Notes: a model not told the origin generated them from the letters alone. Shown: positions 1 to 31,547, numbered from the stretch's first letter. The stretch is DNA of 64,000 nt from Desulfosudaceae bacterium (GCA_963674745.2 CAXXDV010000003.1:2016001-2080000); one strand, 5' to 3'. A program made the numbers and translations.

Positions 1-71
1 GGTAGCTCAGTCGGTAGAGCAGGGGACTGAAAATCCCCGTGTCGGCAGTTCGATTCTGTCCCTCGGCACCA
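1..71 (+). tRNA. tRNA-Phe(GAA), about 5 nt of the 5' end cut off by the window edge
   Basis: D arm GCTCAGTCGGTAGAGC; anticodon stem-loop GGGGA-CTGAAAA-TCCCC (GAA at 29-31); T arm GGCAG-TTCGATT-CTGTC; encoded 3' ACCA at 68-71. Confidence 0.97.
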
Positions 72-91
72 GCAATAAATATAACTATATC

Positions 92-125
92 AATGGCTTA
101 CTTCAAAGTAGCGGTAAGCCATTTT
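92..125 (+). terminator. Intrinsic terminator-like hairpin after tRNA-Phe
   Basis: AATGGCTTAC (92-101) pairs with GTAAGCCATT (114-123), followed by a short T run. Confidence 0.6.
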
Positions 126-406
126 CATTGGTGCCCTGCCCCGTGTGTGAAAAATATTCGGGCTTGTGAAAATAGGCAAACGATCAACTCTCGCACAGAC
201 TTTATTTCTTTAATCATTTCAAGCTAACCTTGTATTTTGCAAAAGCAACTAGATCGGAGTATGTGATCTTTTATCCCCGGATCCGACTGTTCAGTCACCC
301 CCTGAACATGTAGCGGAAAAGACTGACGTCTGAGAACATTTCACCCAAAACGATTAAAAATCACTTCACATAAATCGACAAAAATTCTTTTATAAACAGC
401 ACAACC

Positions 407-1012
407 TTAAAGTGAATTCAAATATGTTTGAATGATTTTTTGTGATCCGACGCCACAACTGATAATTGACCTGAAGGCCTCTTCAGCCGAAACAGAAACC
501 GGATGGACAAATTCTTTTTTTAAATGAAAAATATAACCGGTTGTCGGGTTGGGGCCGGTGGGGACAAAAACGGTATAAGTTCCATCTGGATGCTGTTCCG
601 TTATAAATCCCGTCATTAACGTATTGTTTTCAAATGCGCGGACCATTGCCACAGACGAGAACGGCAGCCTGCCTTTTCCCAGAAACTGCATAACCGTTGT
701 TTTTATCAAGGCGTATCCCGGCGCTCTGCTCATTATCCGTTTTTCAAAATTCTCCTGAATAAAAGTCCCTAATTTTGTCTTAACCAGAATACCGACCAGA
801 AAACATCCGGTTAATATCAGCATTACGGCAAAGATGTCGGCTACAACTTCCATGAGATGAAAATGGGAAACCAGTAAGGTGGTAAAAGGCTGAATCAGGT
901 TCGTGATTAACCTGAACAGCCACATAAATACAAAAATAAAAAGCGCCAGCGGCATGACGACCACAACACCACCAAGAATGGATGTCGTGACAAACGATTT
1001 TAGATTACCCAT
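407..1012 (-). CDS. DUF502-family membrane protein
   Basis: Two N-terminal TM segments; C-terminal VFVPTGPNPTTGY motif typical of DUF502. Confidence 0.8.
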   Translation of the reverse strand: MGNLKSFVTTSILGGVVVVMPLALFIFVFMWLFRLITNLIQPFTTLLVSHFHLMEVVADIFAVMLILTGCFLVGILVKTKLGTFIQENFEKRIMSRAPGYALIKTTVMQFLGKGRLPFSSVAMVRAFENNTLMTGFITEQHPDGTYTVFVPTGPNPTTGYIFHLKKEFVHPVSVSAEEAFRSIISCGVGSQKIIQTYLNSL

Positions 1013-1107
1013 TTCAAGCCGCCTGTTTCCGCAATTGATCCGCTAAATAATTGATAACTCATTGAATCCCCTTCCTACGATATTCGCTTTTGATTTCACA
1101 AAAATCG

Positions 1108-2586
1108 TTAAAAGACTGTATTCATACAGTTAATTAGCTTTTCGATTTCGACTGTTGCTATGCCGGAATTGATATCGGACATGGCATAGGGAATGACCAG
1201 TTCGTTATTATGAATTATCGCACCGCAGGAATAAACGACATTGGGTACATATCCCTCGCGTTCTTTCTCATGTGGGGCAAGTAACGGCTCATCAAGACGG
1301 GCGATAATTTTTGAAGGTTTATCAAGATCAAGCAGCATGGCGCTGATGCAATATTGACGCATAGGCCCGACACCGTGGGTGAGCACGAGCCAACCTTTGT
1401 CGGTCTCCAGGGGGGAACCGCAGTTACCGATCTGAAAGAACTCCCAGGGATATTCAGGTTCCTGGATGATTTGGGACTTCTGCCAGAAATGGATGTTATC
1501 TGAGAACATGATATGATTATTTTCACCGTCCTGGCGTGAGAGCATCACATAACGGCCGTTAATTTTCCGCGGGAAAAGTGCCATGCCTTTATTTTGTACG
1601 GCTTTGCCGTTGAGTGTGAGAATGTTGAATGTGATGAAATCTTTGGTTTCAATCAACTGCGGTAAAATCGTAATGCCATTATAAGCGGTATAGGTAGCAT
1701 AGTAAATGACCTCTCCGTTGTCATTGAAAAATTGCACGAACCGGGCATCTTCAATACCCCTGCTTTCGTTTTTTGAAACGGGAAAGATCACCCGTTCGGA
1801 TATGGGATGATCGGGGTGAAAGCTCACCTCGTAATTGGAATCCGCAAGCCAGCACATGACCTCGAAGGTTCTGTTCTGGAACGCTTCAGAAAATAGCGGC
1901 TTTGTGCGAAGTTGTTTGATTATCTCTATTAATTCATTATAAGTAAAATCCTCCGGCAGCTGGTTAAGAATATGGGCGGTTATCTCATTGGCGGCCCCCA
2001 TCTCGTTAAGTTTTCGTTGGAACGGATTGCGTTTGTAAACCGCGTCTACCTGGAGATCCGGGGTTTCCACAAAATCACTGATCGGGTCGAAGAAGAATTT
2101 GTTGTTTCGGTCAAGGATACCGCTACGAAAGACAATGGACGAAATATGGCCTTCGCCGGTTGCCCGCAGACTCATGACAAAACGCAGGCTGCCTTTTTTC
2201 AAGTGGCTCTGATCAGGATGGGGGATGATGGAAGGGTTAAAAAGGGCTGCCGATTCAATGGAGTATTCCTTTGTAAAGTAAGCGCCGATGAGCGCCTTTT
2301 GGACATCGCTGAGGATTGTTTTCTGGGGAATATAATCCTTCACCTCCGTTAAGTGCTGCTCAAAAATGTGTTCGATATTTTCGTGTCGTCCGGAAAAGTC
2401 GGCCATTATTTGTGAGATTAAATTATTAGCCGTTGTTTCAGGCAAGCTCATTATCCGGGCAATTATTTTTGCTATACGATACCCTTCTTCGGGAACATTA
2501 AGCTGAGTGATCACCCGTGAGGTATCCCCTGTGATCTTAATCGCCTTTCTTTTAACGTTCAGCTTCTGATTCATTTTTACCTGCAT
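1108..2586 (-). CDS. GH130-like glycosidase/glycoside phosphorylase (long form)
   Basis: FNPS, GIEDARF, YATYTAY, KGMALFP, EREGYVPNVVYSCG motifs; start moved to ATG 2586, after an AAGGA RBS. Confidence 0.8.
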   Translation of the reverse strand: MQVKMNQKLNVKRKAIKITGDTSRVITQLNVPEEGYRIAKIIARIMSLPETTANNLISQIMADFSGRHENIEHIFEQHLTEVKDYIPQKTILSDVQKALIGAYFTKEYSIESAALFNPSIIPHPDQSHLKKGSLRFVMSLRATGEGHISSIVFRSGILDRNNKFFFDPISDFVETPDLQVDAVYKRNPFQRKLNEMGAANEITAHILNQLPEDFTYNELIEIIKQLRTKPLFSEAFQNRTFEVMCWLADSNYEVSFHPDHPISERVIFPVSKNESRGIEDARFVQFFNDNGEVIYYATYTAYNGITILPQLIETKDFITFNILTLNGKAVQNKGMALFPRKINGRYVMLSRQDGENNHIMFSDNIHFWQKSQIIQEPEYPWEFFQIGNCGSPLETDKGWLVLTHGVGPMRQYCISAMLLDLDKPSKIIARLDEPLLAPHEKEREGYVPNVVYSCGAIIHNNELVIPYAMSDINSGIATVEIEKLINCMNTVF

Positions 2587-2629
2587 ATACGCTGTGTCCT
2601 TATTGTTGGTTGAATTTTTATAAAATAAT

Positions 2630-3571
2630 TTACAACGGCGGCCGGGAAGCCGTGAGACAAAGCGAAACCAGATCTTCAATCACGGCTGTGCCAACGCACA
2701 TGACCGTATCTGCGCCGCCCCAGTATATTTTCACCGTACCGTCCTTTTCCGGAACAGCACCGCAGGTAAAAACCACATTGGGGACATAACCAGTTGTCTC
2801 CCAGGGATCTTCAGGCTGCAATATCCATTGATCGGAAACACCGATGATCTTGGCTGGATCATCAAGGTCATGCAGGGCCGCGCCGAGTCGATACACGGCT
2901 CCGGCCATTGTTTTAAAGACGCCATGATAAATATGAAGCCAGCCCTGGCCGGTTTTAAACGGCGGCGCGCCGGGTCCGATTTTCATTTCATCCCAGTGAT
3001 AGGCCAGCGGCCTCATAATTACCCGGGAATTGCCCCAGTGCATCAGGTCCGGAGAATATGAAATCCAGATCGACCAGGGCAAAATTTCCGAATGCGGCCG
3101 GTCCAGGCGCGCATAGCGGCCGCCGAACTTTTCAGGAAAAATGACCACGTTGCGAAGGTCTGCCTGGGTGATCAGGGCAATACGTTCCACTGTTTCAAAA
3201 TCCCGGGTGCGCGCCAGGGCAATCCGCACGCCGTGACGGGAATAGGCGCTATAGGTCAGCAGGTACTCATCCTCTACCGGCGAAATCCTCAGGTCTTCGA
3301 CGCCGAACGCTTCATATTCGGCAAAGACCCTGTCTGTTGAAGGTATCAGAAAGGGTTCGGGATGAACCGTAAATGAAAATCCATCCTCGCTGTCGGCCCT
3401 GCCAATAATGGAACGCCCGTTCATCAGATGGGATCTGAAAAGCATGATGTAACGATCATTGTGTTTGACAACGCCGGCGTTGTGGACAGTCGCAACCGGA
3501 TACGGCACATCTTTTCGGGTCAGGATGGGGTTCTTTTTAAAACGAGTTATTATTGGGTTCTGGATTTTCAA
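2630..3571 (-). CDS. GH130-family glycoside phosphorylase/hydrolase
   Basis: HNAGV, GVEDLRI, RNVVIFPEK, KIGPG, WETTGYVPNVVFTCG motifs. Confidence 0.85.
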   Translation of the reverse strand: MKIQNPIITRFKKNPILTRKDVPYPVATVHNAGVVKHNDRYIMLFRSHLMNGRSIIGRADSEDGFSFTVHPEPFLIPSTDRVFAEYEAFGVEDLRISPVEDEYLLTYSAYSRHGVRIALARTRDFETVERIALITQADLRNVVIFPEKFGGRYARLDRPHSEILPWSIWISYSPDLMHWGNSRVIMRPLAYHWDEMKIGPGAPPFKTGQGWLHIYHGVFKTMAGAVYRLGAALHDLDDPAKIIGVSDQWILQPEDPWETTGYVPNVVFTCGAVPEKDGTVKIYWGGADTVMCVGTAVIEDLVSLCLTASRPPL

Positions 3572-4587
3572 AGGGGTCTATCCTGTAAAATCATTTCATA
3601 GAGGTTTATGTATTCATCAACCATGCGATCGACCGTGAAATGCCGTTCAACATGGCGACGGCAGTCTGCACGGTCAATCTCTTCAATATGTTCAACCGCC
3701 TTAATGGCCTCGTTTACATTGTCGACCAAAAAACCGTTTTTTCCGTTTTCAATCAATTCAGGCATACTGCCCCTGTCAAAGGCGATCACGGGCGTACCGC
3801 AGGCCATGGATTCGATAACGGACAGACCAAAAGGCTCATCAAATTGTATGGGGTGCAACAGCGCGCGCGCGTTGCCGAGCAGCCGGTTTCGCTCAACCGG
3901 TCCGACGCTGCCGACATAAACCACCATATTATTGTCGATGTGAGGGGCGACATACTGATCATAGTAAGCCTCGTCCTGGATAATACCTGCCAGTATCAGT
4001 TTTTTATGGCAGGCCCTGGCGATTTCGATCGCTTGCCGCACGCCCTTGTCATGGTGAATGCGCCCAAAAAAAAGCAGATAATCATCCGGAGCAGACTGAA
4101 AATCAAACTGCCTGATGTCAATGCCATGATGAATGGTTCTGATATAATCCAGATCCGGCGACCGGTCGGCATCGCTGATGGAAACATAGTAAGTTTTACC
4201 GTTGTACTTTTTATAAACAGGCAAAATCCCGGGCGATGAAAAGCCGTGAATGGTGGTCACCACCGGGGTGGTGGTCAGGCCGGTATACGTCAGCGGCAGA
4301 AAATCAAAATTGTTATGGATAATGTCAAACTTGTCGGCATGATCAAATAGTTCTGAAATGTGCAGGCACTCCCAGACTTTTGGTATGAGTGAGCGGTCTT
4401 CCTCATAGCCCCGCGGACAGACGGCTTGCAGCGTGCCGCTGGTCTTTGAATCCGCGGTCGCGAACAAGGTGACCTCATGACCGCGTGTTACCAGCCCTTC
4501 GGTTAAAAGGGAAGCCACGCTTTCCCAGGGGCCATAATGACGTGGGGGCGTTCGCCAGGCAATGGGTGAGAGCATCGCGATGTGCAT
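3568..4587 (-). CDS. Glycosyltransferase family 4
   Basis: TPPRHYGPWE, FGRIHHDKG, EPFGLSVIESMACGTPV GT-B motifs. Confidence 0.9.
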   Translation of the reverse strand: MHIAMLSPIAWRTPPRHYGPWESVASLLTEGLVTRGHEVTLFATADSKTSGTLQAVCPRGYEEDRSLIPKVWECLHISELFDHADKFDIIHNNFDFLPLTYTGLTTTPVVTTIHGFSSPGILPVYKKYNGKTYYVSISDADRSPDLDYIRTIHHGIDIRQFDFQSAPDDYLLFFGRIHHDKGVRQAIEIARACHKKLILAGIIQDEAYYDQYVAPHIDNNMVVYVGSVGPVERNRLLGNARALLHPIQFDEPFGLSVIESMACGTPVIAFDRGSMPELIENGKNGFLVDNVNEAIKAVEHIEEIDRADCRRHVERHFTVDRMVDEYINLYEMILQDRPL

Positions 4588-4601
4588 GGCTGATCCTTTA
4601 C

Positions 4602-6908
4602 CTAATTGGCTTTCGAGAACGATGCCGATTTAAGGACTTCGTCGGCATAGAGATGCTGCAAAGATATCAGCGACAGCAGCCAGGCAAGGGACGATTCAGC
4701 ACCCTCATTCTGGTTAATGCCGTCCGCCATCAAGCCATCCCGGCAGCCGCCGGTCTTGGGATCATAGAGCGGCATATTCAGGTCATTTTGTCCGAGAAAC
4801 CAGTTAAAACACATGACGGCGTTGTCGAACCAGGTGTGGTCACGGGTGATATTAAACGCTTCAATACAGGCTTCAATCATGGCATTGGCTTCGACGGGCT
4901 GCTGGTCGAAACGTGCTCTATGACCGCCTTTTTCATACCATCCGTTGCTGCCGATGGGCACAAAGTGATTATCTTCGGTTTGGATGGCAAGCAGCCACTT
5001 GAGGGCGTTAAGTCCCATATCGATCATGTCGCTTCTTTGCATCCTTTTGCCGGACACCAGCAGGGCTTGGGGCAGTTTGCCGTTAGCATAGTTCAACGCG
5101 TTTTCAAGCCAGGGCCAATCGACTGTTCCATTGTGTACGAACTGATTAAAAAGTCTGTCGGCAAGTGCGTCACGGACCCTGCGCACATCACTGTCGCCGG
5201 AAAATTTATGCAGGTAAGCATTTATGCCTACTAGAGAAAAAGCCATAGCGCGAGGCGAATAAAAACCCTCGGCCGCTCTCAACGCCTTGTTGAAAAGGGT
5301 TGTGCTCATTGCCAGATGCCCTGGATCGTCGAGAAAAGCCACTGCTTTACCCAGACACCAGATCGCCCTGCCATGGGCATCCTCTGATCCGACATCCTCC
5401 ATCCACTGCCGTGAATACGTCATGAAATTGCGAAAGCGCCCATTCTTTTCATTATAAGCATACAGAAGAAATCCAAGATAATGGCCGCTTAGAGAATCAA
5501 GTCCAAAACCGTTTGTCGGCAGGTATTTCTGTCCCATTGCGACAACCAGCAGGGCTCTGGCATTATCATCGGTGCAATAGCCATGAGCGCGATCAGGAAT
5601 GGTATGGTTGGCATGTTGCAGGATGCCGGTATCATCGGTAAACGCTTTCAGGTGATCGAGCTTGATCTCCGGGAGCTCGAAATTTGTGATGGCCTTGATG
5701 TTTTCCACATAGGAATAACGGGGACGGGGGTTTTGGGTGCGATTTTGCCGCACTTCACTGAAAACCTGGAGGTATTTTTGGGCTACCGCTTTCCAAACCG
5801 CTTCACGGCTGAAGGTATAAGCCTTTTTACGCATGGCGTGCCGTTCCACATCGTTGTCAAAAAGTTCGATAATTTGTCCGGCGATGGCATCCGGATTGCG
5901 AAAGGGTACAATCCGGCCCCGGCCTTCAGCCAGCATCTCAACGGCATACCAGTATGGTGTTGAGATGACGGCTTTGCCTGTGCCCATGGCATAGGCAAGC
6001 GTCCCTGAGGAAATCTGGGATTCTTCAAGATAAGGGGTTACGTAAATATCGGCAATGCCGAGAAACTCGCACAACTCTTCTAGTTCAACAAAACGATTTT
6101 GAAAAATCACATTTTCGCCGATGTCGAGTTTGCGCACGAGCTGCTGCAGCATGATACGGTATTCGTCGCCATGAGACTTTAAGATATGCGGGTGTGTCGC
6201 GCCCAGAATGATATAGACGACATCAGGATGTTTTTTGATGACCATGGGAAGCGCCTGCAGCACATTCTCTATACCCTTATTCGGGGAGAGCAGGCCGAAT
6301 GTGAGCAGCACCTTTTTGCCTTCCACCCTGAACTTATCTTTGTAGTAGCTTGAATCAATAAACGGCGTATCCGGAATGCCATGATGAATAAAAGCGATTT
6401 TCTCCTCGGGTACTGCATAGACATCCCTGAGAAAATCGGATGCCTTGAGACTCATCACCACCAGTTTATCAGACAGATCGGACAGTTTACACATGACGTC
6501 ACGATATTCAGGAGCAGGATCCTTCAGAATCGTATGCAATGTTGTTACGACCGGCATGCGCAGATCACCTAACAGTTTAAGCAGGTGACTGCCGGCCGGA
6601 CCGCCGAAAATTCCGTATTCATGCTGTACGCAGACAATGTCCGTCTGGCTGATATTAATAAATTGAGCGGCAATACCGTAATCGGCCAATTTGTTCTGGT
6701 TGATCTCAAATCGCACTTTTTTCGGATATAGATATCCCTCAAGTTTATCATTCATGGCAGCCGCCCAGCATTTAATTCCGGGCGTTTGCGCCGATAAAGC
6801 CTCGACCAGGTCGGTTGTGAAAGTAGCGATACCGCACTGGCGGGGCAGATAGTTACCTATTACGGCAACTGATTCGATTCCCTCGTAACATTTAATACCA
6901 GATGTCAT
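4602..6908 (-). CDS. GT4 glycosyltransferase fused to a C-terminal helical glycosidase-like domain
   Basis: N-terminal PRQCGIATFT, QHEYGIFGG, FGLLSPNKG, SSGTLAYA; C-terminal GYCTDDNARAL, SEDAHGRA, FDQQPVEA, NQNEGAES; ATG 6908 preferred over 6947. Confidence 0.8.
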   Translation of the reverse strand: MTSGIKCYEGIESVAVIGNYLPRQCGIATFTTDLVEALSAQTPGIKCWAAAMNDKLEGYLYPKKVRFEINQNKLADYGIAAQFINISQTDIVCVQHEYGIFGGPAGSHLLKLLGDLRMPVVTTLHTILKDPAPEYRDVMCKLSDLSDKLVVMSLKASDFLRDVYAVPEEKIAFIHHGIPDTPFIDSSYYKDKFRVEGKKVLLTFGLLSPNKGIENVLQALPMVIKKHPDVVYIILGATHPHILKSHGDEYRIMLQQLVRKLDIGENVIFQNRFVELEELCEFLGIADIYVTPYLEESQISSGTLAYAMGTGKAVISTPYWYAVEMLAEGRGRIVPFRNPDAIAGQIIELFDNDVERHAMRKKAYTFSREAVWKAVAQKYLQVFSEVRQNRTQNPRPRYSYVENIKAITNFELPEIKLDHLKAFTDDTGILQHANHTIPDRAHGYCTDDNARALLVVAMGQKYLPTNGFGLDSLSGHYLGFLLYAYNEKNGRFRNFMTYSRQWMEDVGSEDAHGRAIWCLGKAVAFLDDPGHLAMSTTLFNKALRAAEGFYSPRAMAFSLVGINAYLHKFSGDSDVRRVRDALADRLFNQFVHNGTVDWPWLENALNYANGKLPQALLVSGKRMQRSDMIDMGLNALKWLLAIQTEDNHFVPIGSNGWYEKGGHRARFDQQPVEANAMIEACIEAFNITRDHTWFDNAVMCFNWFLGQNDLNMPLYDPKTGGCRDGLMADGINQNEGAESSLAWLLSLISLQHLYADEVLKSASFSKAN

Positions 6909-6930
6909 AACAATTGCTGCCTTTTTGCTT

Positions 6931-7062
6931 TTACGTTGATCTTTCATTTGTCAAAATCGATGGCACTTTATCCTTTTTCCCCTTTCGTTTCTCTTTCAGC
7001 GTTTGTTTACCTTTTTTCTGTTCTTCACGTTTGCCTTTATCCCGTTTTCCTTTGTCGCCCAT
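6931..7062 (-). CDS. Small Lys/Arg-rich protein (43 aa), absent from the ORF track
   Basis: Manual translation MGDKGKRDKGKREEQKKGKQTLKEKRKGKKDKVPSILTNERST*; AAGGAA RBS; fills the gap in the operon. Confidence 0.6.
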   Translation of the reverse strand: MGDKGKRDKGKREEQKKGKQTLKEKRKGKKDKVPSILTNERST

Positions 7063-7093
7063 TTGGTTTCCTTTTCTTTATGAATTATTGTTT

Positions 7094-8269
7094 TTATCCA
7101 TGGCCGGACGGTTCACCCGGGGCATACCCGGCTATTCCTGTCATGAATCTCACAACCCAATAGCTTAGCCAGCTTGTCAGGCGGAACCGAAATGACTTCG
7201 AGCTCAATTTGTTCCCGAAAATCCGTCGAGCGCCGTCCTTGATTGCCTGCTCCATGCTATACTTTAATTCTTTGGCAAAATCTTCATCATCAACAACGAC
7301 ATTTGCTTCCAAAGAAAGCAGCAGGCTGAGCGGATCAAGATTTGAAGATCCCACTGTAGCCCAATGATTATCAATCACGGCAACTTTGGCGTGCATCATA
7401 CTCTTGTGATATTCGTAGATCTCAATCCCGGCATCGAAAAAATCGCCATACAAGGCATGTGAAGCATAATGCAGCAGGCGATGATCCATTTTGCCCTGCA
7501 ACAGCAAAACCACCCGGACGCCACGCCCAGACGCATCCAAAAGCGCCCGCCGGAAATTCAATCCCGGGAAAAAGTAGGCATTGGCCAGAATGATTTCAAA
7601 TTGTGCCTGTTCAATTGCCAAAAGATAGGCCTCTTCAATATCCCGGCGATGGCGGATGTTATTCCGTATCATAAAACCAGAGCGCATCCGGCCCATGGCT
7701 TCGACTGAAGGGACTTGTCTGTAATCTTCCCGACCCAGGCCGGGAAGCATGCGGGACCAGGTCACTCGCGCCCACAACCGGCGGGAAGAGGTATAAATTT
7801 TTGTCACCAGCGGCCCCTCCACACGGACAGCGTAGTCATGACGAATCGGTGTTTGATCAGGCATATTCATATCATCGATTATATTAATCCCTCCGACAAA
7901 CGCCATCTTCCGGTCCACAACCAATACTTTGCGGTGCAAGCGCCGCAACCGCCGGCGTCGCAACGTCCAGGGCGATGTCCTAGGCCGGAACTTCAATACC
8001 ATTACGCCAGCCGCTTCCATGTAATCCATCATGGTTTTCGGAAAACGCTTCGAACCGAATCCATCCATTAAAACGTGGACTTTTACGCCACGCAAGGCCG
8101 CCCGCCTGAGCGCATCCGCAATGCGCTGCCCGGTATTGTCATTTTCGAAAATATAGCTTTCCAGGTAAATCTCACGCTCCGCCAGGTAAAACGCCGCTTC
8201 GATCGCCGGAAAATAAGCTTCGCCGTTTTGTAACAGGGTAATGTGATTGTTTGGAATCATACGGAGCAA
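7094..8269 (-). CDS. clsB: Cardiolipin synthase B-like phospholipase D
   Basis: Two HKD motifs (HRKVLVVD, HAKVAVID); LLQNGEAYFP start; no N-terminal TM segment. Confidence 0.85.
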   Translation of the reverse strand: MLRMIPNNHITLLQNGEAYFPAIEAAFYLAEREIYLESYIFENDNTGQRIADALRRAALRGVKVHVLMDGFGSKRFPKTMMDYMEAAGVMVLKFRPRTSPWTLRRRRLRRLHRKVLVVDRKMAFVGGINIIDDMNMPDQTPIRHDYAVRVEGPLVTKIYTSSRRLWARVTWSRMLPGLGREDYRQVPSVEAMGRMRSGFMIRNNIRHRRDIEEAYLLAIEQAQFEIILANAYFFPGLNFRRALLDASGRGVRVVLLLQGKMDHRLLHYASHALYGDFFDAGIEIYEYHKSMMHAKVAVIDNHWATVGSSNLDPLSLLLSLEANVVVDDEDFAKELKYSMEQAIKDGARRIFGNKLSSKSFRFRLTSWLSYWVVRFMTGIAGYAPGEPSGHG

Positions 8270-8334
8270 AACAGGTCCATCCTTTTTCTGAATTGGCGCT
8301 GCCTGTCGGAAATATCAAGCGAACGTCTGGTCGG

Positions 8335-8556
8335 TTACTGCGGCTTGGTGTAGGGGTGGTTTTTGTGGTACAGACGCAGTTGAGAAGCAAACCAGCCCAG
8401 GACAATTCCAATTGATAAAATCAAAAGCATCACCAATGCCCTGGACATTGACAACGTCCAAAATAAAAACGTCAGTTCTACCGTCGTGACATTCTGGATG
8501 ATGAATAATACCACCATCCCAATCAGTGTTAAGCTAAGGATAAATTTGTAGTTCAT
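8335..8556 (-). CDS. LapA/DUF1049-like small membrane protein
   Basis: Two TM helices with the FIIQN..VELTFLFW pattern. Confidence 0.7.
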   Translation of the reverse strand: MNYKFILSLTLIGMVVLFIIQNVTTVELTFLFWTLSMSRALVMLLILSIGIVLGWFASQLRLYHKNHPYTKPQ

Positions 8557-20873: not shown

Positions 20874-20878
20874 TTTTT

Positions 20879-22994: not shown

Positions 22995-23822
22995 TTACGG
23001 CATAAACACCGGCACACTCCCCACAGCCTGCACCAGTTTCTGACCTTTGGGTGAAAACACGTAGTTGATAAAATCCAACGTAATCCCTTCCGGCCAGCCG
23101 TTGGTAAACATGTACAGGGGGCGGCTGACGCCATACTGACCACTTATGGTTGTCGTTTCGGTTCCCAGAACGCCGTCCACCTTCACCTGTTTGAGGGAAT
23201 CATTTAAGTAAGCCAGGCCGATATACCCGATGGCACCGGTGGTCTGGCCGACCGTCTGGACGGCGGCGCCATTGGAGGCAACCGTCAGCGCGCTGGGTAC
23301 AACCCGCTCTTTTTTCAACACAATATCACCCCAGACTTCATACGTCCCGGAAGAGCTGTCTCTTGAAACAACAACGATTTTTTCGTTTTTACCGCCGACG
23401 TCCTTCCAGTTGGTGATTTCCCCTTTATATATGGCCCCCAGTTGATTGATGGACAAATCCGATACCGGGTTGGCGGGATGGACCACCGGAACAATGCAAT
23501 CCATGGCAATTCTGAAAGGCACCGGATATATACCCTTGTCGCAGGCCATTTTGATCTCTTTGTCCTTGATAAACCGGGAGGCATTGGCAATATCGGTAGT
23601 ACCGTCAATAATGGCCTTGATACCGTTGCCGGAGCCGCCGCCGGAAAGGGAGACAGACACGTTTCTTTCCTGCATATAGGCTTCGGCGATTTTCTGAGCA
23701 GCCGGTAGCACGGTCGTCGACCCTTTGATGACCAGCTGTTCCGCCATGATCGGGACAACAGCAATGAACGCCGCCAGGGTTAGAACAATTGCGAATGTTA
23801 ATTTTTTTAATGTGTTTTTCAT
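22995..23822 (-). CDS. pstS: Phosphate-binding protein
   Basis: Signal peptide; KGSTTV, GGGSGNG, DIANASR, SRDSSSGT, SRPLYM. Confidence 0.92.
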   Translation of the reverse strand: MKNTLKKLTFAIVLTLAAFIAVVPIMAEQLVIKGSTTVLPAAQKIAEAYMQERNVSVSLSGGGSGNGIKAIIDGTTDIANASRFIKDKEIKMACDKGIYPVPFRIAMDCIVPVVHPANPVSDLSINQLGAIYKGEITNWKDVGGKNEKIVVVSRDSSSGTYEVWGDIVLKKERVVPSALTVASNGAAVQTVGQTTGAIGYIGLAYLNDSLKQVKVDGVLGTETTTISGQYGVSRPLYMFTNGWPEGITLDFINYVFSPKGQKLVQAVGSVPVFMP

Positions 23823-23936: not shown

Positions 23937-24161
23937 GATAAACCGGGCCGAATAACGGACCTGAAATCAACAGACAGCGCACCTGATAAGATTTCAGACG
24001 CCTGCATTATTGATACTTTACTGTAAATATTGAAAATCTGCCTGATTAAAACAAACGATTCCAGATGAACCAAATTGTTTTACATGCCAGAAGGAGGCGT
24101 ATTATGCCGGAAGGAAATTATGAGAATCTAATGTCTGAGATAAAAAGCTCGGAGGCGGTTT

Positions 24162-24206
24162 CTGAAAATCCCCGTGTCGGCAGTTCGATTCCGCCCCTCG
24201 GCACAA
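24162..24206 (+). repeat. att-like copy of the tRNA-Phe 3' end (3 mismatches in 45 bp)
   Basis: CTGAAAATCCCCGTGTCGGCAGTTCGATTCCGCCCCTCGGCACAA, preceded by AAGCTCGGAGGCGGTTT as at 16295. Confidence 0.92.
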
Positions 24207-24490
24207 GCAAAAAACATTGCCATATCAAATGCTTATCAAATATCATGGGGCAAGCCTTTTTTCATTGGTGCCCTGCCCCTGTGTAAATCTGTGTGTGGAT
24301 CCGAGCATGTGATCTTTGATCACCAGGTCCGGCGGTTCACTGGTTTACCGGCTCTATGAGATTTTGAGTTATACTTTTTGTATTATTTGCTGGTTCAAAA
24401 AAAATATTGGCTAACTCTCCTGATCACCGATAACGTGAATAGAAGCTTTTCTTTCTTTCCTGTCTTACAGCCAAATAATCTTGACATGAA

Positions 24491-24558: not shown

Positions 24559-26028
24559 ATGCTGCAACCAAATACAAACCAGGAATCAAACATCCAACCC
24601 AATAACCCGGCGCAAAATGATGCTTCCGAATTAGAACGCGTTTTTCAGTTACAGAAGACGGCTTTCTTAAAGAACCCCCTTCCAGATGCGGAGGAACGTA
24701 TTGGCCATCTAAAAAGGCTAAAAAGAAGTCTGGTTAAATATAAAAATGAAATCGCGGACGCACTGAACAATGATTTCGGCAACCGGTGCAGAGATGAAAC
24801 ATTTCTGGCTGAACTGATCGGCGCAATTGAAGGAATTAATTATAACATACGACATGTCAAAAAATGGATGAAACCTTCCCGACGCATGCCTGGAATGATG
24901 TACATGCCGGCTTCAGCTAAAGTTTATTATCAGCCCCTGGGAGTCATCGGCATTATCGCACCCTGGAACTACCCGGTTTATCTTTCCATCGGCGGGCCAC
25001 TGGTATGCGCCCTGTCCGCAGGAAACAGAGCCGTTATGCGTATGAGCCGGTGTACGCCGCAAACCGCCGCCGTGCTGAAAAAGCTTATCGGAGAAACATT
25101 TAATGAAGATCATGTAACGCTATATGCAGGTGACGATGTTTCAGGAAGACAGTTTACCACCATACCATGGGATCATATGATATTCACGGGTTCAACAGCA
25201 GCCGGGAAAGAAGTGATGCGTGCCGCAGCAGATAATCTTACACCGGTAACCCTTGAACTGGGTGGAAAATCACCGGCCATCATCAGCCATGACGTACCAA
25301 TCAAAGACGCTTCCGAGCGGATCGCCTGGGGAAAAATGCTCAATTCCGGTCAGACCTGTGTCGCACCTGACTACGTACTCTGTCCAGAGCATCGAATATC
25401 CGATTTCATCGAATCCTTTCGTCAATCTGTTCAACGCATGTATCCAACGCTAAAAGGCAATAAAGACTATACCAGTGTGGAAAACGATCAGCAATATGGA
25501 CATCTGCAGGAACTTCTGGAAGATGCCCGGAAAAAAGGAGCAAAAATAATCGTTATCAATCCGGCTGATGAGGATTTTTCCGGTTCGCGCAAAATACCGG
25601 TTCACCTGGTACTCAACGCCACTGACGAAATGGCGCTTTTACAAAAAGAAATTTTCGGACCGATATTGCCGATTATTCCCTATAACACCCTGGAAGAGGC
25701 CATTCGTTACATAAACGACCGTCCGCGTCCCCTGGCCCTTTACTTCTTTGATTACAATCGGGGCAATGCCGAGTACGTTATCAAAAACACCCATTCCGGC
25801 GGCGTGCTGATCAACGATACCATGGTCCACGTACCTCAGGATGCCATGCCTTTCGGCGGTATTGGTCAATCGGGTATGGGGCAATACCACGGGCACGCCG
25901 GGTTTCTGGCCTTTTCTAAAGAAAAGGGGGTGTTGTTCAAACCGAAATTCAATAGCGGTAAACTGATCTATCCGCCATACGGCAGATATGTTCACAAGCT
26001 GGTTTATAAATTACTGCTCGGTGAGTGA
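24559..26028 (+). CDS. Aldehyde dehydrogenase, coniferyl-aldehyde (CalB)-like/class 3
   Basis: PWNYP, FTGST, TLELGGKSP, NSGQTCVAPDY, EIFGP, PFGGIGQSGMG. Confidence 0.9.
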   Translation: MLQPNTNQESNIQPNNPAQNDASELERVFQLQKTAFLKNPLPDAEERIGHLKRLKRSLVKYKNEIADALNNDFGNRCRDETFLAELIGAIEGINYNIRHVKKWMKPSRRMPGMMYMPASAKVYYQPLGVIGIIAPWNYPVYLSIGGPLVCALSAGNRAVMRMSRCTPQTAAVLKKLIGETFNEDHVTLYAGDDVSGRQFTTIPWDHMIFTGSTAAGKEVMRAAADNLTPVTLELGGKSPAIISHDVPIKDASERIAWGKMLNSGQTCVAPDYVLCPEHRISDFIESFRQSVQRMYPTLKGNKDYTSVENDQQYGHLQELLEDARKKGAKIIVINPADEDFSGSRKIPVHLVLNATDEMALLQKEIFGPILPIIPYNTLEEAIRYINDRPRPLALYFFDYNRGNAEYVIKNTHSGGVLINDTMVHVPQDAMPFGGIGQSGMGQYHGHAGFLAFSKEKGVLFKPKFNSGKLIYPPYGRYVHKLVYKLLLGE

Positions 26029-26123
26029 TTGCCGCCGTATAAATCTGACAAACAGTTTTTGTTTCTCCTCAGAGGGGACAGGATCGACCACAAACGATCT
26101 TGTTCCGCCCCCTGTCTTAGGGT

Positions 26124-28892
26124 TCATTCGATTTTATCAATACGAACGGCACAGGCCTTATATTCCGCCGTCAGCGTGATCGGATCAAAAACCGGGTTGG
26201 TAAGAAAATTGGCATTACCTTCCCGAAAATGAAAAGCCATCCATACCAGCCCCTTGGGTACTTCTGCGGTCACCCGCGCTTTGACACGGACTTCTCCCCG
26301 ACGGGACTTGACCTGAATGAGTTCACCGTCGGCAATATTCATGGCGGCCGCGTCATCAAATGAGATATCTGCCGTTTCCTCTCCAAGCAGATCATTTAAT
26401 CCTTCACAGCGCCCGGTTTGGGTTCGAGTATGATAATGATACAATCTTCTGCCCGTGCTCAACACCAGTGGGTAGGTTTCATCCGGGATCTCGGCTGGCG
26501 GCGTCCAGTCCACAGGGATCAACGCGCCCCTGCCACGGGTGAAGTTTCCGGACTGATGAAGTACAGGTGTTCCCGGATGATCTTCGGTCGGGCACGGCCA
26601 CTGCAATCCGTCACCCTCAAGGCGATAGTATTTGATCCCGGCCAGGGCAGGCGCCAGCACCGATATTTCGTTATCCCAGATTTCCTGAGCACTATTGGAC
26701 GTCCAATCCTGACCCATACGACGGGCGATTTCCTTGAATATCAACCAGTTGGGCATTGCCTGACCCGGTGCCTGACTGACGGTTCTGACCCGGTTGACCC
26801 GGCGCTCGCTGTTGGTAAAGGTTCCGTCATTTTCACTCCAAGCGGCCGCGGGCAGCACCACGTGGGCAAACCGGGTGGTCTCGGTCTGAAAGATATCCTG
26901 ACAGACCAGAAACTGGGCTGAGGCCAACTCATGTTCCACTTTATGAATGTCCGGCTCGGTGCTGGCCAGGTTTTCACCGAAGATGTAAAAAGCCTTCACT
27001 TTCCCTGACAACAGGCCTTCCATCATCTGTGGAATCATCAGGCCGTTTTTATCGGGCAGGTTTGAGACATTCCAGAACTTCTCGAATTTCTGCCGGGATT
27101 TTTCGTCGATAACGGTCTGATAGCCCGGGAATACGTTGGGAAGCGCGCCCATATCGCAGGCACCCTGAACGTTATTCTGTCCCCTCAAGGGATTAACTCC
27201 GCCGCAGGCCACGCCCATATTGCCCAGCAGCATCTGCAGATTTGCAGTGGACACAACGTTGTTACGGCCGCAAGTATGCTCGGTAATGCCCAGTGTATAG
27301 CAGAGCATGGCAGGTTTTACCGACACCAGTAGTCGGACCGTGTCATACAGCATCTGCTCGGAAATTCCGCAAATCGGGGCGACCCGCTCCGGTGGATATT
27401 CGCTGACTTTTTCCTTCAGCTCCTGAAAATTTTCGGTTCTTAATTCAACAAAATCTCTGTCATACAAGTTGTCTCGAATCAGGATATGCATCAGACCGTT
27501 TAAAAAAGCGATGTCGCTGCCCACATGAATAGGCACATGCAGGTCCGCAAAATCCACCAGACGATGGGCTCTGGGATCCACGACAATAAGTTTGGCGCCC
27601 TTCTGAACGGCATTTTTCAAAAAAGTCGATGCTACTGGATGGGCTTCGGTCATGTTGGACCCGATCACTAAAAACATTTTCGCCCGTGAAAATTCCTCAA
27701 AAGAGTTGGTCATGGCCCCGGAACCGAAAGATGCCGCCAGACCGGCGACTGTGGGGGCATGTCATGTACGGGCGCAGTGATCGATATTATTGGTCTTGAA
27801 CACCGCGCGAAAAAGTTTTTGCATCTGGTAGGAATCTTCGCTGATGCTCCTGGCGCAGCTTACACCAGCAATCGCGTCTGGCCCGTCAGTGGCAATAATC
27901 TGCTTAAACCTGTCAGCGACCAGGTTGAGGGCTTCATCCCAGGAAGATTCCCTGAATTTTCCGTTTTCCCGAATCAGCGGTGTGGTCAACCGTTCTTCGG
28001 AATAAATGAAATCATAGCCGAAACGACCTTTAACGCACAGTCGGCCTCTGTTTGGCCGACCGTTTTCCACCCCGTTCACCTTGACGATGATACCGTCCTT
28101 TACATGCAGTTCCTGCTGGCACCCCACGCCACAGTATGGACAAGTCGTCCGGACTTTTTCCACCTCCCAGGGACGCCATTTGTACACCGCCTTCTTTTCC
28201 ACCAGCGCCCCTACGGGACAGGCCTGAATACATTCACCACAAAAAACACAATTAGAATCCGCCAGTGTTTGATTGTTTCCGGTTACGATTTTTTCCTGAC
28301 CGTCCTGAGTACCGAAATCAATAACCCGATTGACCTGTACCTCGTTACAGGCGCTGACACACCTACCACACAGGATACAGCGGGAATGATCCCTTATAAT
28401 CAGTGGGTTTACGTCTTCTTTAGGCAGGGACGACCGATCGGCATAAGGTCTTTTCCCCTTTACCTGATAACGATAGAGAAGATCCTGCAATCGGCAGTCT
28501 CCCCAGACAGGGCAAAGATCATCTGTCTGTTCATATTCCCCTGCCGTTAGCTGAAAAGTAGTCCAATCAGATACGCCCTTGCTGGAAGCCGTGCAATTGT
28601 GGTTACCTGATGCGATCATGGACTCCAGGGTTTTTCTTCTAGCGGCTACCACTTTGGGTGATTCGGTTTTAACCAACATGCCTGCCTCGCAGGGTGTATT
28701 ACAGGCGGTGACCAGTTCAGCCTGCCCATGAATTTCCACCACGCAGATTTTGCATCTTGCACCGGGCGTAGTACCTTCCAGATAGCAAAGTGTGGGAATA
28801 TCTATACCATGTTCTTTTGCTACCTCAAGAATCGTCTGGCCGGAAGAAAAATTAATCTCCCGGCCGTTTAGAACCATTGTAGAATCGGACAT
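26124..28892 (-). CDS. fdhF: Selenocysteine-containing formate dehydrogenase alpha subunit with N-terminal NuoG-like Fe-S domains (922 aa; joins two track ORFs)
   Basis: In-frame TGA at 27762-27764 gives [54 protein letters not shown]; molybdopterin C-terminal domain. Confidence 0.93.
27733..27749 (-). promoter_or_regulatory. Bacterial SECIS element
   Basis: The mRNA 12 nt after the UGA reads GUCGCC-GGUCU-GGCGGC, an fdhF-type hairpin with a GGUCU loop. Confidence 0.85.
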
Positions 28893-28983
28893 GCGACTTC
28901 TCCCGTAATATTAAAGAGATTTGTATGTGTTTATCCGGATCAGCCGGACGAAACTTCAAAACAAGGGAGATATCAAATGTATT

Positions 28984-29009
28984 TCGTTATGTCAATATTG
29001 GCATAATGA
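28984..29009. promoter_or_regulatory. ModE-type palindromic operator upstream of fdhF
   Basis: TCGTTATG-N10-CATAATGA, same geometry as 24491-24516. Confidence 0.68.
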
Positions 29010-29050
29010 ATAGAAACAAAAAATTTGTGCGGGGATTCTTGAAAAACAGA

Positions 29051-29434
29051 TCAGTCTTTTGGGGCGGATTTTAATCGGGGAGCAAATTTTTCATCAAAAA
29101 ACGTGTCAGCCTGTTTATTCACCTGTTGATGAAGGACGCGGAATCTTTTTATAAGAGACTGGGCCAACGGCGTTAAAGCTGATCCCCCCCCGGATGCGCC
29201 ACCGGCATTTCTGATTAAAAGCGGATACCCCAGGGCTTCTTCAGTGGTTCTGATTTTTCCCCAGATGGCCCTGTATCCCATCTTCAACTCTTTAGCAGCC
29301 GCGTTGATGGAACCACATTTTTCAATCGTGCTCAGGATACGGAAACGGCCCAGCCCGAAAATCACTTTTCCCTGATTGTCCTCTATCCATATTTTGGAAC
29401 GGATATGGAACACCTTTTTTTCTTTTTTTGTCAT
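29051..29434 (-). CDS. ModE-family winged-helix regulator (DNA-binding domain only)
   Basis: SKIWIE...FGLGR..LSTIEKCGSINAAAKELKMGYRAIW...GGASGGGSALT; 127 aa, so no TOBE domains. Confidence 0.85.
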   Translation of the reverse strand: MTKKEKKVFHIRSKIWIEDNQGKVIFGLGRFRILSTIEKCGSINAAAKELKMGYRAIWGKIRTTEEALGYPLLIRNAGGASGGGSALTPLAQSLIKRFRVLHQQVNKQADTFFDEKFAPRLKSAPKD

Positions 29435-29845
29435 GCATAACTCCTGTCGACCAAAGGTTGTACCTTTTGTTCTGGTCGTAGAGATATAGTGTGGTTAAAA
29501 ACAATATTAAACCAAGTTTACTTGTGTTCCTATCTCAATTTTACGTAATTTATTGATACGGCAATGGATAGCAAAGAAGCAACAGGTCAGTCAATATGTT
29601 ATCGGTTATATTTCCGACGTCAACTTACGGAAAAATTAGGGGTTCAGAAGGCTCGGAAGTTCTGACTTCTAATCCGTAGGTCGGACGATACAATTGTGAT
29701 CCAAGGCAACGCTAAGCAAAAAAATTTAACAAAACAATATGCGGTAATATGCGATTATGCTGCCAGAGTTGTACAAAAACTCGTTTAATATTCGAAAAAC
29801 TCGCATAACTTTCAGTAACATACTAATTTTACTTAAAAACCAACC

Positions 29846-29864
29846 ATTCTGTCCCTCGGCACCA
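29846..29864 (+). repeat. Short att-like copy of the tRNA-Phe 3' end (19 bp)
   Basis: ATTCTGTCCCTCGGCACCA equals positions 53-71. Confidence 0.85.
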
Positions 29865-29883
29865 TAAAAGATAAAGCTAGATT

Positions 29884-29918
29884 AAAGGGTTATCCGCTGC
29901 GTCGGTTAACCCTTTTTT
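29884..29918 (+). terminator. Terminator-like hairpin after the short att copy
   Basis: AAAGGGTTATCCG-CTGCGT-CGGTTAACCCTTTTTT. Confidence 0.6.
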
Positions 29919-30001
29919 CGTTGAAAATGACAAATTGTGCCCATGAGACATTTTCGATTGTTCTTCGAGGTAGGACTGATACATGTATTTTATCAGCAGT
30001 G

Positions 30002-30673
30002 TTAATACGCCATCAGTCTCTGTGCCAGCCGATGCAGTTCCGGGTTGGCCAATGCGACGACTTTTTTCTTGACCGCCCGCGAATAATATTCTTTTTCGGT
30101 TTTGGTCAAAGGCAATCCCTCCAGCCGTTTTTTGAACAGCTCTTTCTGCTTGGGGGAAAACACCTGCGAAAGCGCGTATTCCAGAGAAAGCGCTTCGTGT
30201 TTTTCTGTTTGCCGGCGGCTTTTTTCGGCATCCTTTTCGAAATACAGCTCGAATGCCTTCTTCAGACGCAACGGATGGAACTCCAGCCCGTTCAGTTTGA
30301 AACTGTTTCCGGATGCCAATTCTTTGCGCAGTTGTTTCAGACCTGCTTCTTCATTTTCAGAAAGCATCTCTTTTAGCGGCCTCATCCAGGAAAAGGACAG
30401 GTGGCGGAGGTCGTAGAGCGTAAACGAGACCTGCAACAGAGCATGAAAGGCTTTTTTCTGCTCTTTATTATTGAGGTGTTCCAGGACTCGTTCATATGCG
30501 AATCGGAAATCACTAGCAGCATTGACGAGCAGTACCGGAAACCCTTCCCATAATCTCTTGTCCCTGCTTTTTACCACTTCGGCGAGGGTCTGGTTGACAT
30601 CGAATTCTTCGATTGCCTCCAGAAGGGGCAAACCCAATTGTGACAACCTTTCATATAATGACTTTTCCGTCAT
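30002..30673 (-). CDS. Hypothetical protein, putative partner or antitoxin of the upstream nucleotidyltransferase
   Basis: 4-nt overlap with the upstream gene; basic C-terminal LTKTEKEYYSRAVKKK helix. Confidence 0.6.
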   Translation of the reverse strand: MTEKSLYERLSQLGLPLLEAIEEFDVNQTLAEVVKSRDKRLWEGFPVLLVNAASDFRFAYERVLEHLNNKEQKKAFHALLQVSFTLYDLRHLSFSWMRPLKEMLSENEEAGLKQLRKELASGNSFKLNGLEFHPLRLKKAFELYFEKDAEKSRRQTEKHEALSLEYALSQVFSPKQKELFKKRLEGLPLTKTEKEYYSRAVKKKVVALANPELHRLAQRLMAY

Positions 30674-31254
30674 AAGACTTTCTCCTCTTTAAGGAGTTCG
30701 ATAAATCGGTCGATGTGGACAGCTATTCGTGCTTCAGCGATATCATAACTGGCAAGCTCACGATAATGATTCACCAATCGTTCGATATCGATTCGGTGTC
30801 GTATGGATTTCATCAGCATCAGGCAATCCTCGGAATCAACTGTGGTACCGCGCATCAATTTACTTGCGATCAGGTCGTATTCATTCAAAATGCCGATATA
30901 GAGCCGGCTGTATTCCTTCAGCAGGGTGTGGTTACCCGGTTCAAGCGGTGATTCCAGCAGTTCCGTCGTATGGATCCGGTTTCCTTCAAAAAGGTCGAAC
31001 CTAAAAATGTCTCCTTTCCGCTGCCATCCGCTCCCGGTAACCTGCTCGTAACCAAGCGTTTTGAGCACCTTGATCAGGTAGCCATGTTCACCCGTCCTGG
31101 GGACCATGAAATCAACATCTTTGGTGGATGGTTTTACTTGAAGCAGGGTCATTGCCGTTCCACCGCACGCAACGAGGTGAATCTTCCTTTTCAGGAAGCG
31201 GTTCCATTGCCCCATAACATCGAGCAAGGTCTGTTTGTTGATCCTGTATTCCAT
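30670..31254 (-). CDS. Nucleotidyltransferase-fold protein (DUF6036/AbiEii-like)
   Basis: ACGGTAM...STKDVDF motif; DLIASKLMRG..D.ED motif. Confidence 0.72.
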   Translation of the reverse strand: MEYRINKQTLLDVMGQWNRFLKRKIHLVACGGTAMTLLQVKPSTKDVDFMVPRTGEHGYLIKVLKTLGYEQVTGSGWQRKGDIFRFDLFEGNRIHTTELLESPLEPGNHTLLKEYSRLYIGILNEYDLIASKLMRGTTVDSEDCLMLMKSIRHRIDIERLVNHYRELASYDIAEARIAVHIDRFIELLKEEKVL

Positions 31255-31502
31255 AACATTGTACCGATTAGTTCAATTATTTGTATAATTATATACAATA
31301 AGTTGATCATATTTGTACAGCATTTTTTGAAAAAACAATATGGCAGAGGAGTGATAGTCATTGTGCCCAGACTGTGCCTAAATTGTGACCGTCAGAAACA
31401 AACGTTAACAAATAAAGACAAACAAAACCAAAAATACACAGCTTTTTTAAATATTATCAACCTATTGAAAAAACGGATAAATCGTATTTTCTCATAATTC
31501 GG

Positions 31503-31547
31503 CTGGAAATCCCCGTGTCGGCAGTTCGATTCTGCTCCTCGGTACCA
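31503..31547 (+). repeat. att-like copy of the tRNA-Phe 3' end (4 mismatches in 45 bp)
   Basis: CTGGAAATCCCCGTGTCGGCAGTTCGATTCTGCTCCTCGGTACCA. Confidence 0.9.

Follow-up and report, generated by a model that had tools for sequence, protein, structure and literature searches.

A probable tandem-accretion array, largely decayed and of several families, at the tRNA-Phe gene of a Desulfosudaceae bacterium

The first 31,547 nucleotides of the window, a 64,000-nucleotide stretch of DNA from a Desulfosudaceae bacterium (G000:C3:2016001-2080000), contain repeated copies of the 3′ end of the tRNA-Phe gene with blocks of cargo genes between them. We read this region as a largely decayed, multi-family tandem-accretion array at a tRNA-Phe hot spot, composed of islands that resemble cis-mobilizable elements (CIMEs); we consider this reading probable rather than assured. 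The source genome, G000, is 5.55 Mb in 3 contigs with 99.96% completeness. Relatives are denoted G001, G002, G003, G007 and G009, while L090, L100 and L246 are single loci of other genomes.

We infer the order of events as follows. Tyrosine-integrase elements crossing over in the anticodon loop of tRNA-Phe would have inserted successively, and one element of another family would have crossed over in the T-loop. Each newcomer would have displaced older elements away from the tRNA gene, and successive insertions would leave internal junctions with the layout outer arm, core, inner arm. Integrase genes would have been lost from all blocks to give CIME-like units, that is, cargo between attachment (att) sites without integration genes. 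Most units would have decayed further, with truncated outer arms and mutated or lost cores. Given this decay, the array would now be mainly a fixed, presumably immobile, part of the chromosome.

Copies of the tRNA-Phe 3′ end and their flanking arms

The tRNA-Phe(GAA) gene lies at G000:C3:2015996-2016071 (window -4..71), with rsmE upstream. It is the sole tRNA-Phe gene among the 48 tRNAs predicted by ARAGORN in the whole genome. The window opens 4 nt inside this gene, and ARAGORN predicted 0 tRNAs in the window alone; positions 1-68 were scored as a tRNA by Rfam (54.9 bits), with the 5′ end cut off. A 31-mer of the tRNA 3′ end, allowing up to 3 mismatches, matched at positions 41, 16326 (0 mismatches), 24176 (3) and 31517 (3), and 0/100 shuffles matched. 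Searching with a 23-mer added 29842-29864, the last 19 nt of which are exact. A repeat search returned a 55-nt family at 27, 16312, 24162 and 31503, together with a 19-nt family in five copies. The initial annotation had reported recurrences at 16312, 24162, 29846 and 31503; its mismatch counts were reproduced and a further, decayed copy was added at about 29625-29690. The features are:

1..71, plus strand: tRNA-Phe(GAA), 5′ end cut by the window start; core at 27-71, from anticodon loop to CCA
16312..16356, plus strand: att core copy 2, 45/45 identical
24162..24206, plus strand: att core copy 3, 3 mismatches
29625..29690, plus strand: relic of a family A outer arm, then a decayed core (shuffle test; also judged by eye)
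29846..29864, plus strand: 19-nt copy of the tRNA 3′ end, T-loop to CCA, family C att scar (23-mer and repeat searches)
31503..31547, plus strand: att core copy 5, 4 mismatches, the last copy found

All three 45-nt copies are in direct orientation, start at CTGAAAAT in the anticodon loop and end at CCA. Over the 45-nt core, the number of mismatches grows with distance from the tRNA gene (0, 3 and 4), and the spacings between successive copies are 16285, 7850, 5684 and 1657 nt. The copies are preceded by outer (P) arms and followed by inner (tRNA-proximal, P′) arms, as listed below.

16150..16311, plus strand: outer arm of block 1, family A; diverged GTGT repeats at about -137 and -125, CCAAAAT repeats and GAGGGGGTTAAGAAGCTCGGAGG directly before the core
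24130..24161, plus strand: outer arm of block 2, cut to the last 32 nt of family A, without GTGTG repeats at -137 and -125
29731..29845, plus strand: outer arm, family C, preceding the 19-nt tRNA-Phe copy
31370..31502, plus strand: outer arm, family B, of the TCAAC..TTG..TTTTCAAAAATTTGG type, with homologues left of tRNA-Phe fragments
72..293, plus strand: inner arm of block 1; hairpin at 95-120, one GTGTGTGAA repeat at 143-151 and a distal module common to arms 2 and 3
16357..16575, plus strand: inner arm of block 2; hairpin, GTGTGTGAATCTGTGTGTAAAAAACTTTCG and distal module
24207..24340, plus strand: inner arm of block 3, with an internal deletion compared with arms 1 and 2
29865..29922, plus strand: hairpin arm of block 4, with 82% similarity to the DNA flanking tRNA-Phe in G001 (G001:C191:3049-3124)

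The repeats, the arms and the relations between arm families are direct observations. Family A arms stand before copies 2 and 3, which have about 32 nt to their left in common, and before the relic. The relic arm (29625-29658) aligns to 16271-16304 with a score of 39, equalled by 0/1000 shuffles. A family B arm stands before copy 5 and a family C arm before the 19-nt copy. Hence, with three arm types in the window, the array records the insertion of elements from at least three families. Family arms lie on both sides of the core at the junctions, and full and partial tRNAs bracket the blocks. These are flanks of the attL/attR type, and we take the repeats to be att scars of site-specific integration. 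Decay is indicated by the core mismatches, the outer arm of block 2 and the relics at 29625-29690. The likeness to an integron array first proposed is not supported, and the array is no single uniform system: families A, B and C all left footprints, the outer arm of block 2 is only 32 nt long, and both outer arm and core of block 3 are decayed. Synteny with G002 suggested a decayed attR adjoining the PNPOx gene 104 kb downstream, and none was found there.

Each outer arm family has relatives beyond the window. The family A arm of block 1 is 78% identical to G002:C26:50129-50340 (over 16150-16364) and, over 112 nt, 70.5% identical to the arm that precedes the C1:1257971 tRNA-Ala fragment. In family A, GTGTGTGAATC repeats lie on either side of the core and AGGAGGTTAGGAAAC precedes it. 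The full order, found in this genome before tRNA-Ala(GGC) and tRNA-Arg(CCT) fragments, is two TGTGTGTGAATC, TTCCAAAAT..GCTAAAACGTGGAAAAT, a spacer of about 50 nt, TGAGGAGGTTAGGAAACCCGGGGGTC and the core; a diverged form of this architecture precedes window copy 2 and occurs in G002:C26. The sequence TGTGTGTGAA occurs 11 times in the genome, 8 times in such arms. The family B arm matches 10 loci (12 BLAST hits), left of tRNA-Phe fragments. The family C arm also precedes 17-19-nt tRNA-Leu(GAG) ends (arms at C3:2487129-2487219 and C3:2489078-2489143, within C3:2487129-2487265 and C3:2489078-2489204). The tRNA-Leu(GAG) locus itself (G000:C3:2485264-2489204) has two such 3′-end repeats with the family C arm, and no listed integrase nearby.

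The inner arms of blocks 1-3 resemble one another, as had been claimed. In BLAST searches against the genome, 72-276 matched 16357-16573 (75% over 218 nt, E 2e-36), 72-151 matched 24207-24287 (76% over 85 nt) and 252-293 matched 24298-24339 (81% over 42 nt). The segments 16280-16446 and 24130-24296 are 76% identical. In arm 2, GTGTGTGAATCTGTGTGTAAAAAACTTTCG read on the minus strand corresponds to roughly the final 12 codons of an integrase gene, and the arm matches the tRNA-Ala(GGC) locus (79% over 52 nt). The distal module had no BLAST match in the rest of the genome at E≤0.01. The arms gave two chance-size matches in 60 relatives, neither credible for the distal module, and in 400 genomes of the order the module gave short AT-rich matches in unrelated contexts only. 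With arm 2 as query, 19/401 genomes (G000 counted) had a match, the strong ones being the arm-repeat motif.

Three interpretations of the distal arms were set aside. Reverse translations resembled integrase box II motifs; the protein-level searches described below gave no support for integrase pseudogenes. A relic of a tRNA-Arg(CCT) site in distal arm 2 was rejected after BLAST of arms 1-3 against all 48 tRNAs gave nothing significant. Scores for distal modules common to the tRNA-Arg(CCT) or tRNA-Ala inner arms were equalled by 28-309/500 shuffles.

Recombinase searches and cargo of the blocks

The lack of recombinase genes is also a direct observation. Pfam searches found no recombinase, transposase or conjugation family in the 32 main open reading frames (ORFs) of 1-36565, nor in 84 further ORFs of at least 40 aa in 1-32200 (E≤0.01). 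Together these are 116 ORFs, and small excisionases could slip past Pfam. A six-frame search with the Phage_integrase profile (PF00589) gave 21 matches genome-wide and 0 in the window, the closest being at C3:2332584. The description of the segments as integrase-free therefore holds as far as Pfam sees. The Pfam scan of the main ORFs likewise found no replication module (primase, helicase, polymerase) in blocks 1-4.

Integrase proteins were also used as queries. The L090 integrase, which adjoins tRNA-Phe in that genome, had a single strong match in G000, namely the integrase at tRNA-Ala (61% identity, 541 bits), and the runner-up scored 31 bits. Thus, the genome has no integrase at tRNA-Phe. 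The same whole-genome search listed no match in the window at E≤10. Searches of the distal arms by tblastn with 11 integrases of the genome gave nothing significant, and six integrases that adjoin tRNA-Phe genes matched the arms over a short C-terminal motif only. Integrase remnants had been named in the initial annotation as a sign of ordinary eroded islands that would speak against its reading. They are present as about the last 12 codons in arms 2 and 3; no further remnant was detected.

The blocks carry the following cargo.

407..16030, minus strand: cargo of block 1
16721..23822, minus strand: cargo of block 2, namely phoR, phoB, phoU, pstB, pstA, pstC and pstS
24559..29434: cargo of block 3, namely aldehyde dehydrogenase (plus), formate dehydrogenase alpha (minus) and a small HTH_1 (ModE-like) protein (minus)
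30002..31254, minus strand: cargo of block 4, a 223-aa protein of unknown function and a DUF6036 nucleotidyltransferase

Block 1 encodes DUF502, a glycan cluster of two GH130 proteins and two GT4 glycosyltransferases, PLD, a small LapA-like ORF, two unknown proteins, two SPFH proteins, B12-radical SAM, ABM and KH proteins and a sigma54 activator. As claimed at the outset, each of blocks 1-3 has its own regulator: the sigma54 enhancer-binding protein, PhoB/PhoR and the small HTH_1 protein. Formate dehydrogenase alpha (26124-28892, minus strand) is a single 922-aa frame with an in-frame TGA at residue 377 (..HCARTUHAPT..), for selenocysteine, and tRNA-SeC is present in the genome. In block 4, the DUF6036 gene overlaps that of the 223-aa protein, which has no Pfam match, and the layout resembles a two-gene toxin-antitoxin or defence pair. 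The claim that cargo genes point toward the tRNA is true of all bar the aldehyde dehydrogenase gene. It fails as a cassette property, since the genes past the array (31706-36565) are also on the minus strand and the GC skew of the region is negative.

The cargo has relatives within the lineage. Synteny with the right half of block 1 (7030-16030) is seen in G001:C379 (65-81% aa identity) and, in part, in G007. The left half (72-7029) had no DNA match in the five relatives among the matches listed, with 20 further matches unlisted. The genes for aldehyde dehydrogenase, formate dehydrogenase and the HTH protein are adjacent in G003:C9. A second pst-pho operon (C1:1851923-1858835) is the first cargo, at the tRNA-proximal end, of an island at tRNA-Arg(CCT). 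The two copies are 77-88% identical in DNA, and their homology stops at gene borders. The origin of these copies can be read directly from a concatenated tree, which placed them as sisters (support 100/100; 92.7% aa identity), followed outward by G001, G002, G003 and G007+G009. In G001 and G002, pst-pho sits between orthologues of G000 C1:152086 onward and C1:151227 onward. The matching place in G000 (C1:151227-151996) lacks any pst gene and is taken up by roughly 770 nt of tandem repeats. The GC content of the segments is 0.48-0.51, compared with 0.505 for the genome, and no compositional oddity was found in them. On the grounds of the pst-pho sister copies, the synteny in relatives and the genome-like GC content, we take the cargo to be operons of the lineage itself, duplicated or relocated, and not foreign DNA.

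Two side observations concern the DNA in and beside the array. Repeats of about 130 nt occur at 18495-18641, in the phoR/phoB spacer with inverted arms at 18578-18602 and 18674-18698, and at 32092-32218. They recur dozens of times in G001, G002, G007 and G009 (75-97% identity) and look like a family of miniature inverted-repeat transposable elements or repetitive extragenic palindromes. To the right of the array, an FAD oxidoreductase/electron transfer flavoprotein cluster (32214-40000) shares 88% DNA identity with G002:C8 and 84-88% with G003:C7, from another genus, which exceeds the identity of other regions compared between the same genomes.

Related islands in this genome and in Desulfobacterales

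An integrase-bearing copy of the arms, which the initial annotation had suggested looking for, is present in this genome. At tRNA-Ala(GGC) (C1:1188342), the tRNA gene is followed by a hairpin, GTGTGTGAATCTGTGTGTGAAT and a gene for a 396-aa tyrosine integrase (C1:1188479-1189666), the last residues of which, NSHTDSHTAV, are encoded by GTGTGTGAATC repeats. Fragment repeats of the tRNA lie 69.5 kb away (C1:1257971, 48/48) and 72.6 kb away (C1:1261032). Both the inner and the outer arms of this island (G000:C1:1188342-1261076) are homologous to those of the window. Its genes include a DnaG-like primase, a ubiquitin-like (Bub-type) operon of DUF6527, ThiF, E2 and multi-ubiquitin proteins, type I restriction-modification, a protein kinase, SSB, a PD-(D/E)XK nuclease with UvrD helicase, RadC and other defence-like genes. 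The Pfam scan found no conjugation genes in it. A 3-kb integrase-less unit follows the 69.5-kb island.

Arms of the same family also surround different cargo, as had been anticipated, in G002:C26 and at tRNA-Arg(CCT) in this genome. The tRNA-Arg(CCT) island (G000:C1:1851448-1928041) is 74 kb long and has fragment repeats at C1:1925354 (46/46) and, 2.6 kb further, at C1:1927997. The six-frame genome search found no PF00589 match between them. A short decayed tRNA-Arg fragment lies inside the inner arm of this island. Fragment arrays with other arms, and without a listed integrase, were also seen (G000:C1:640683-656843; C3:1004486-1015682; C3:1012918); they comprise two fragments of Arg-TCG, two of SeC and one of Asp, far from its gene.

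Scanning one genome per species with the 31-mer gave at least 80 loci and at least 86 matches, mostly in metagenome-assembled genomes of Desulfobacterales. The matches listed are 56 full tRNAs and 30 fragments (28 distinct sites). In 29/30 of the listed fragments, from other Desulfobacterales, tRNA homology starts at the anticodon loop. A type A junction, with AGGAGGTTAGGAAACTCGGAGG directly before the core, precedes 8/30 of them, and a type B junction (TCAACTGCTTG...TTTTCAAAAATTTGG) precedes 11/30, judged by eye. A degenerate search for type A junctions in metagenome contigs returned 61 stretches. For 51 of these, the left flank extends to 160 nt or more; a GTGTG-type repeat is present in 49 of the 51, and 38 show two such repeats in the interval from -150 to -100. 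No metagenome contig matched the exact 32-mer spanning the outer arm/core junction. Arm-type repeats are at least 90% conserved between families of the order as well as between different tRNA targets, and in three genomes of the order the GTGTGTGAATC motif is the 3′ end of an integrase gene adjoining tRNA-Arg(ACG). At L100, an integrase adjoins a tRNA-Phe fragment, and the first 45 nt of the arm there are like arm 2 (77% over 48 nt).

At L246 (G002:C4:194000-203000), positions 6116-6287 or thereabouts hold tRNA-Ala(GGC), a hairpin and GTGTG repeats, which pass directly into an outer arm whose end is a loop like that of tRNA-Arg(CCT). The whole is apparently an empty inner-arm/outer-arm unit with a chimeric core. 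Microbial-mat metagenome contigs contain a 90-95% identical relative with the cargo of blocks 1-3, one contig spanning the outer arm and core 2, that is, the left side of junction 2; as contigs from one sample, these are weak evidence. Among the 15 metagenome contig joints listed (252 more are unlisted), none lies at a core, a result uninformative on rare excision.

Alternative readings and known systems

Several observations weigh against the decayed array as we have outlined it. In the distal arms, integrase remnants went undetected: the local protein scores observed were equalled by 36-148/300 shuffles, and the sole outstanding part was a stretch of arm 2 with the GTGTG motif (2/200 shuffles). 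Thus, the proposed loss of integrase rests on about 12 codons. The arm family is represented in the genome by 1 integrase and at least 6 integrase-less units (three at tRNA-Phe, one behind the first tRNA-Ala fragment, one at tRNA-Arg(CCT) and one at tRNA-Arg(ACG)). Similarity between arms 1 and 2 extends over about 205-217 nt, and arm 3 resembles arm 1 over the first 80 nt and at 252-293. All three diverge within about 20 nt of one common point, with unrelated cargo beyond, and such a common end point is not expected from three independent integrase deletions. Moreover, arms 1 and 2 are 75% identical, yet core copy 2 is 45/45, for which in-place decay has a probability of 0.75^45, or about 2e-6. 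It is therefore probable that the arms had diverged, and were without an integrase, before they arrived, which would fit elements moved by an enzyme in trans. Block 1, with both arms and a perfect core, is by its layout structurally able to excise.

These points favour a second reading, in which an integrase encoded elsewhere moves the blocks, as live, non-autonomous cassettes whose att ends are complete, so that the array grows and shrinks. We consider this doubtful, although it has a real share of the probability. The helper could be the tRNA-Ala island integrase, if tolerant of other cores, or the integrase of an incoming element. Since the arm-type repeats are so well conserved across families and tRNA targets, one arm-binding domain could serve many elements, and integrases 61% identical adjoin tRNA-Ala here and tRNA-Phe in L090. 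The integrase-less inner arm, of roughly 220 nt, has one boundary in three blocks, beside the 45/45 core. The integrase-less tRNA-Arg(CCT) island has its 46/46 repeat, and pst-pho stands at the tRNA-proximal end of two integrase-less islands while the place it occupies in G001 and G002 is empty in G000. Conversely, neither block 2 nor block 3 has an intact outer arm (GTGTG repeats are missing, or the arm is decayed), and mutations are present in cores 3 and 5. As for the integrase in trans of the initial annotation, the genome has none at tRNA-Phe: its sole family integrase sits at tRNA-Ala, the core of which differs from that of tRNA-Phe. The distal arm module has no credible match outside the window, whether in the rest of the genome, 60 relatives or 400 genomes of the order. 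The mat relative, within the limits given above, has the block 1-3 cargo together with the left part of junction 2.

A broader scheme would be a two-tier system, with a few driver islands (integrase and primase) and many GTGTGTGAATC-arm cassettes of Desulfobacterales, their att ends complete, that arrive integrase-less and are putatively moved in trans. It is allowed by the common inner-arm boundary beside an undecayed core, by the near-identical arm repeats, and by the tRNA-proximal position of both pst-pho copies with the ancestral site empty. We hold it to be unlikely. The capture and relocation of whole host regulons such as pst-pho between several tRNA sites, as a part of this scheme, is an equally tentative suggestion.

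Homologous recombination could also have built an additive island. Here, the first event would be site-specific and later blocks would be added from the DNA of related strains, with the tRNA gene and arms as anchors. The cargo is of the same lineage, with pst-pho nesting inside the genus and a genome-like GC content; synteny around the locus is scrambled between G000, G001 and G002; and relatives have arrays at the same tRNA with related arms (G002:C26). However, arms only 75% alike are a poor substrate, each junction has the exact site-specific layout (outer arm, anticodon-loop core, inner arm), and the three arm families each have their own core length. We regard this origin as improbable. 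Assembly artefacts are scarcely credible as the source of the repeats: short-read contigs of runs X4 and X5, which hold the stretch, do end at the cores (16324/16335 and 24164), which is expected at such repeats and says little, whereas the copies differ in mismatches and flanks, the same layout occurs in many other genomes and metagenomes, and the genome is in 3 contigs and nearly complete.

Read as a decayed accretion array, the locus resembles systems already described. CIMEs are decayed islands with attL and attR, without integration or transfer genes, that form tandem accretions, as reported for relatives of ICESt1 and ICESt3 in Streptococcus thermophilus (PMC5704250). Judged against the part of that account used here, the likenesses are that the window blocks keep attL and attR without integration or transfer genes, stand in tandem at one target gene with hybrid att sites at internal junctions, and have a related autonomous element, here the tRNA-Ala island, in the same genome (PMC5704250). 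The differences are the tRNA target, the Desulfobacterales host, the mixture of three att families and a mobilisation that is only putative. Furthermore, the related element here has an integrase and a primase, lacks conjugation genes in the Pfam scan and sits at another tRNA.

Prochlorococcus has tRNA-linked islands in which incoming elements displace older ones inward and leave partial tRNAs behind (bioRxiv 10.1101/2020.12.28.424599). As far as the portion of that preprint drawn on here goes, the tycheposons share with the window tRNA integration, partial tRNAs flanking the elements, displacement of older elements, degenerate remnants, extra partial tRNAs and phosphate-assimilation cargo; the integrase and primase of the tRNA-Ala island resemble their integration and replication modules. 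Conversely, tycheposons are there defined as integrase-carrying, whereas the window blocks have neither recombinase nor replication module (bioRxiv 10.1101/2020.12.28.424599). Host phylum and arm architecture also differ.

Integrons are comparable in having ordered gene units between recombination sites, with addition proposed at one end. The window array differs in having no intI, attI or common promoter. Its units are multi-gene operons of 1.7-16 kb with their own regulators, not mostly promoterless single-gene cassettes, and its sites are tRNA fragments with long arms, in three families, not attC hairpins.

Composite arrays of staphylococcal cassette chromosome (SCC) and pseudo-SCC units at rlmH (orfX) in staphylococci contain recombinase-less units with the same direct repeats, movable by ccr in trans. 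Such units occur in tandem with or without a recombinase-bearing unit, and their mobility has been demonstrated. The window blocks share the tandem arrangement of recombinase-less units between direct repeats. They differ in recombinase class, target gene and host, and in that their mobility is putative. Tandem accretion with CIME-like units at a tRNA is already known as a route of genome growth, and on our analysis the window array is a further case of it.

If the integrase-less units are immobile, the locus would be an ordinary fossil array. If they are mobile, they would clearly exemplify a helper integrase that moves regulon-sized cargo in a setting other than the streptococcal and cyanobacterial models. 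The att architecture defined here combines conserved repeats at about 137 and 125 nt ahead of the core with a conserved box adjoining it; it is widespread in Desulfobacterales and can serve to find such islands in metagenomes. The array itself suggests that a genome of the sulfate-reducer type gains and reshuffles whole operons at tRNA hot spots, here those for phosphate uptake with its regulators, a selenocysteine-containing formate dehydrogenase and a glycan cluster.

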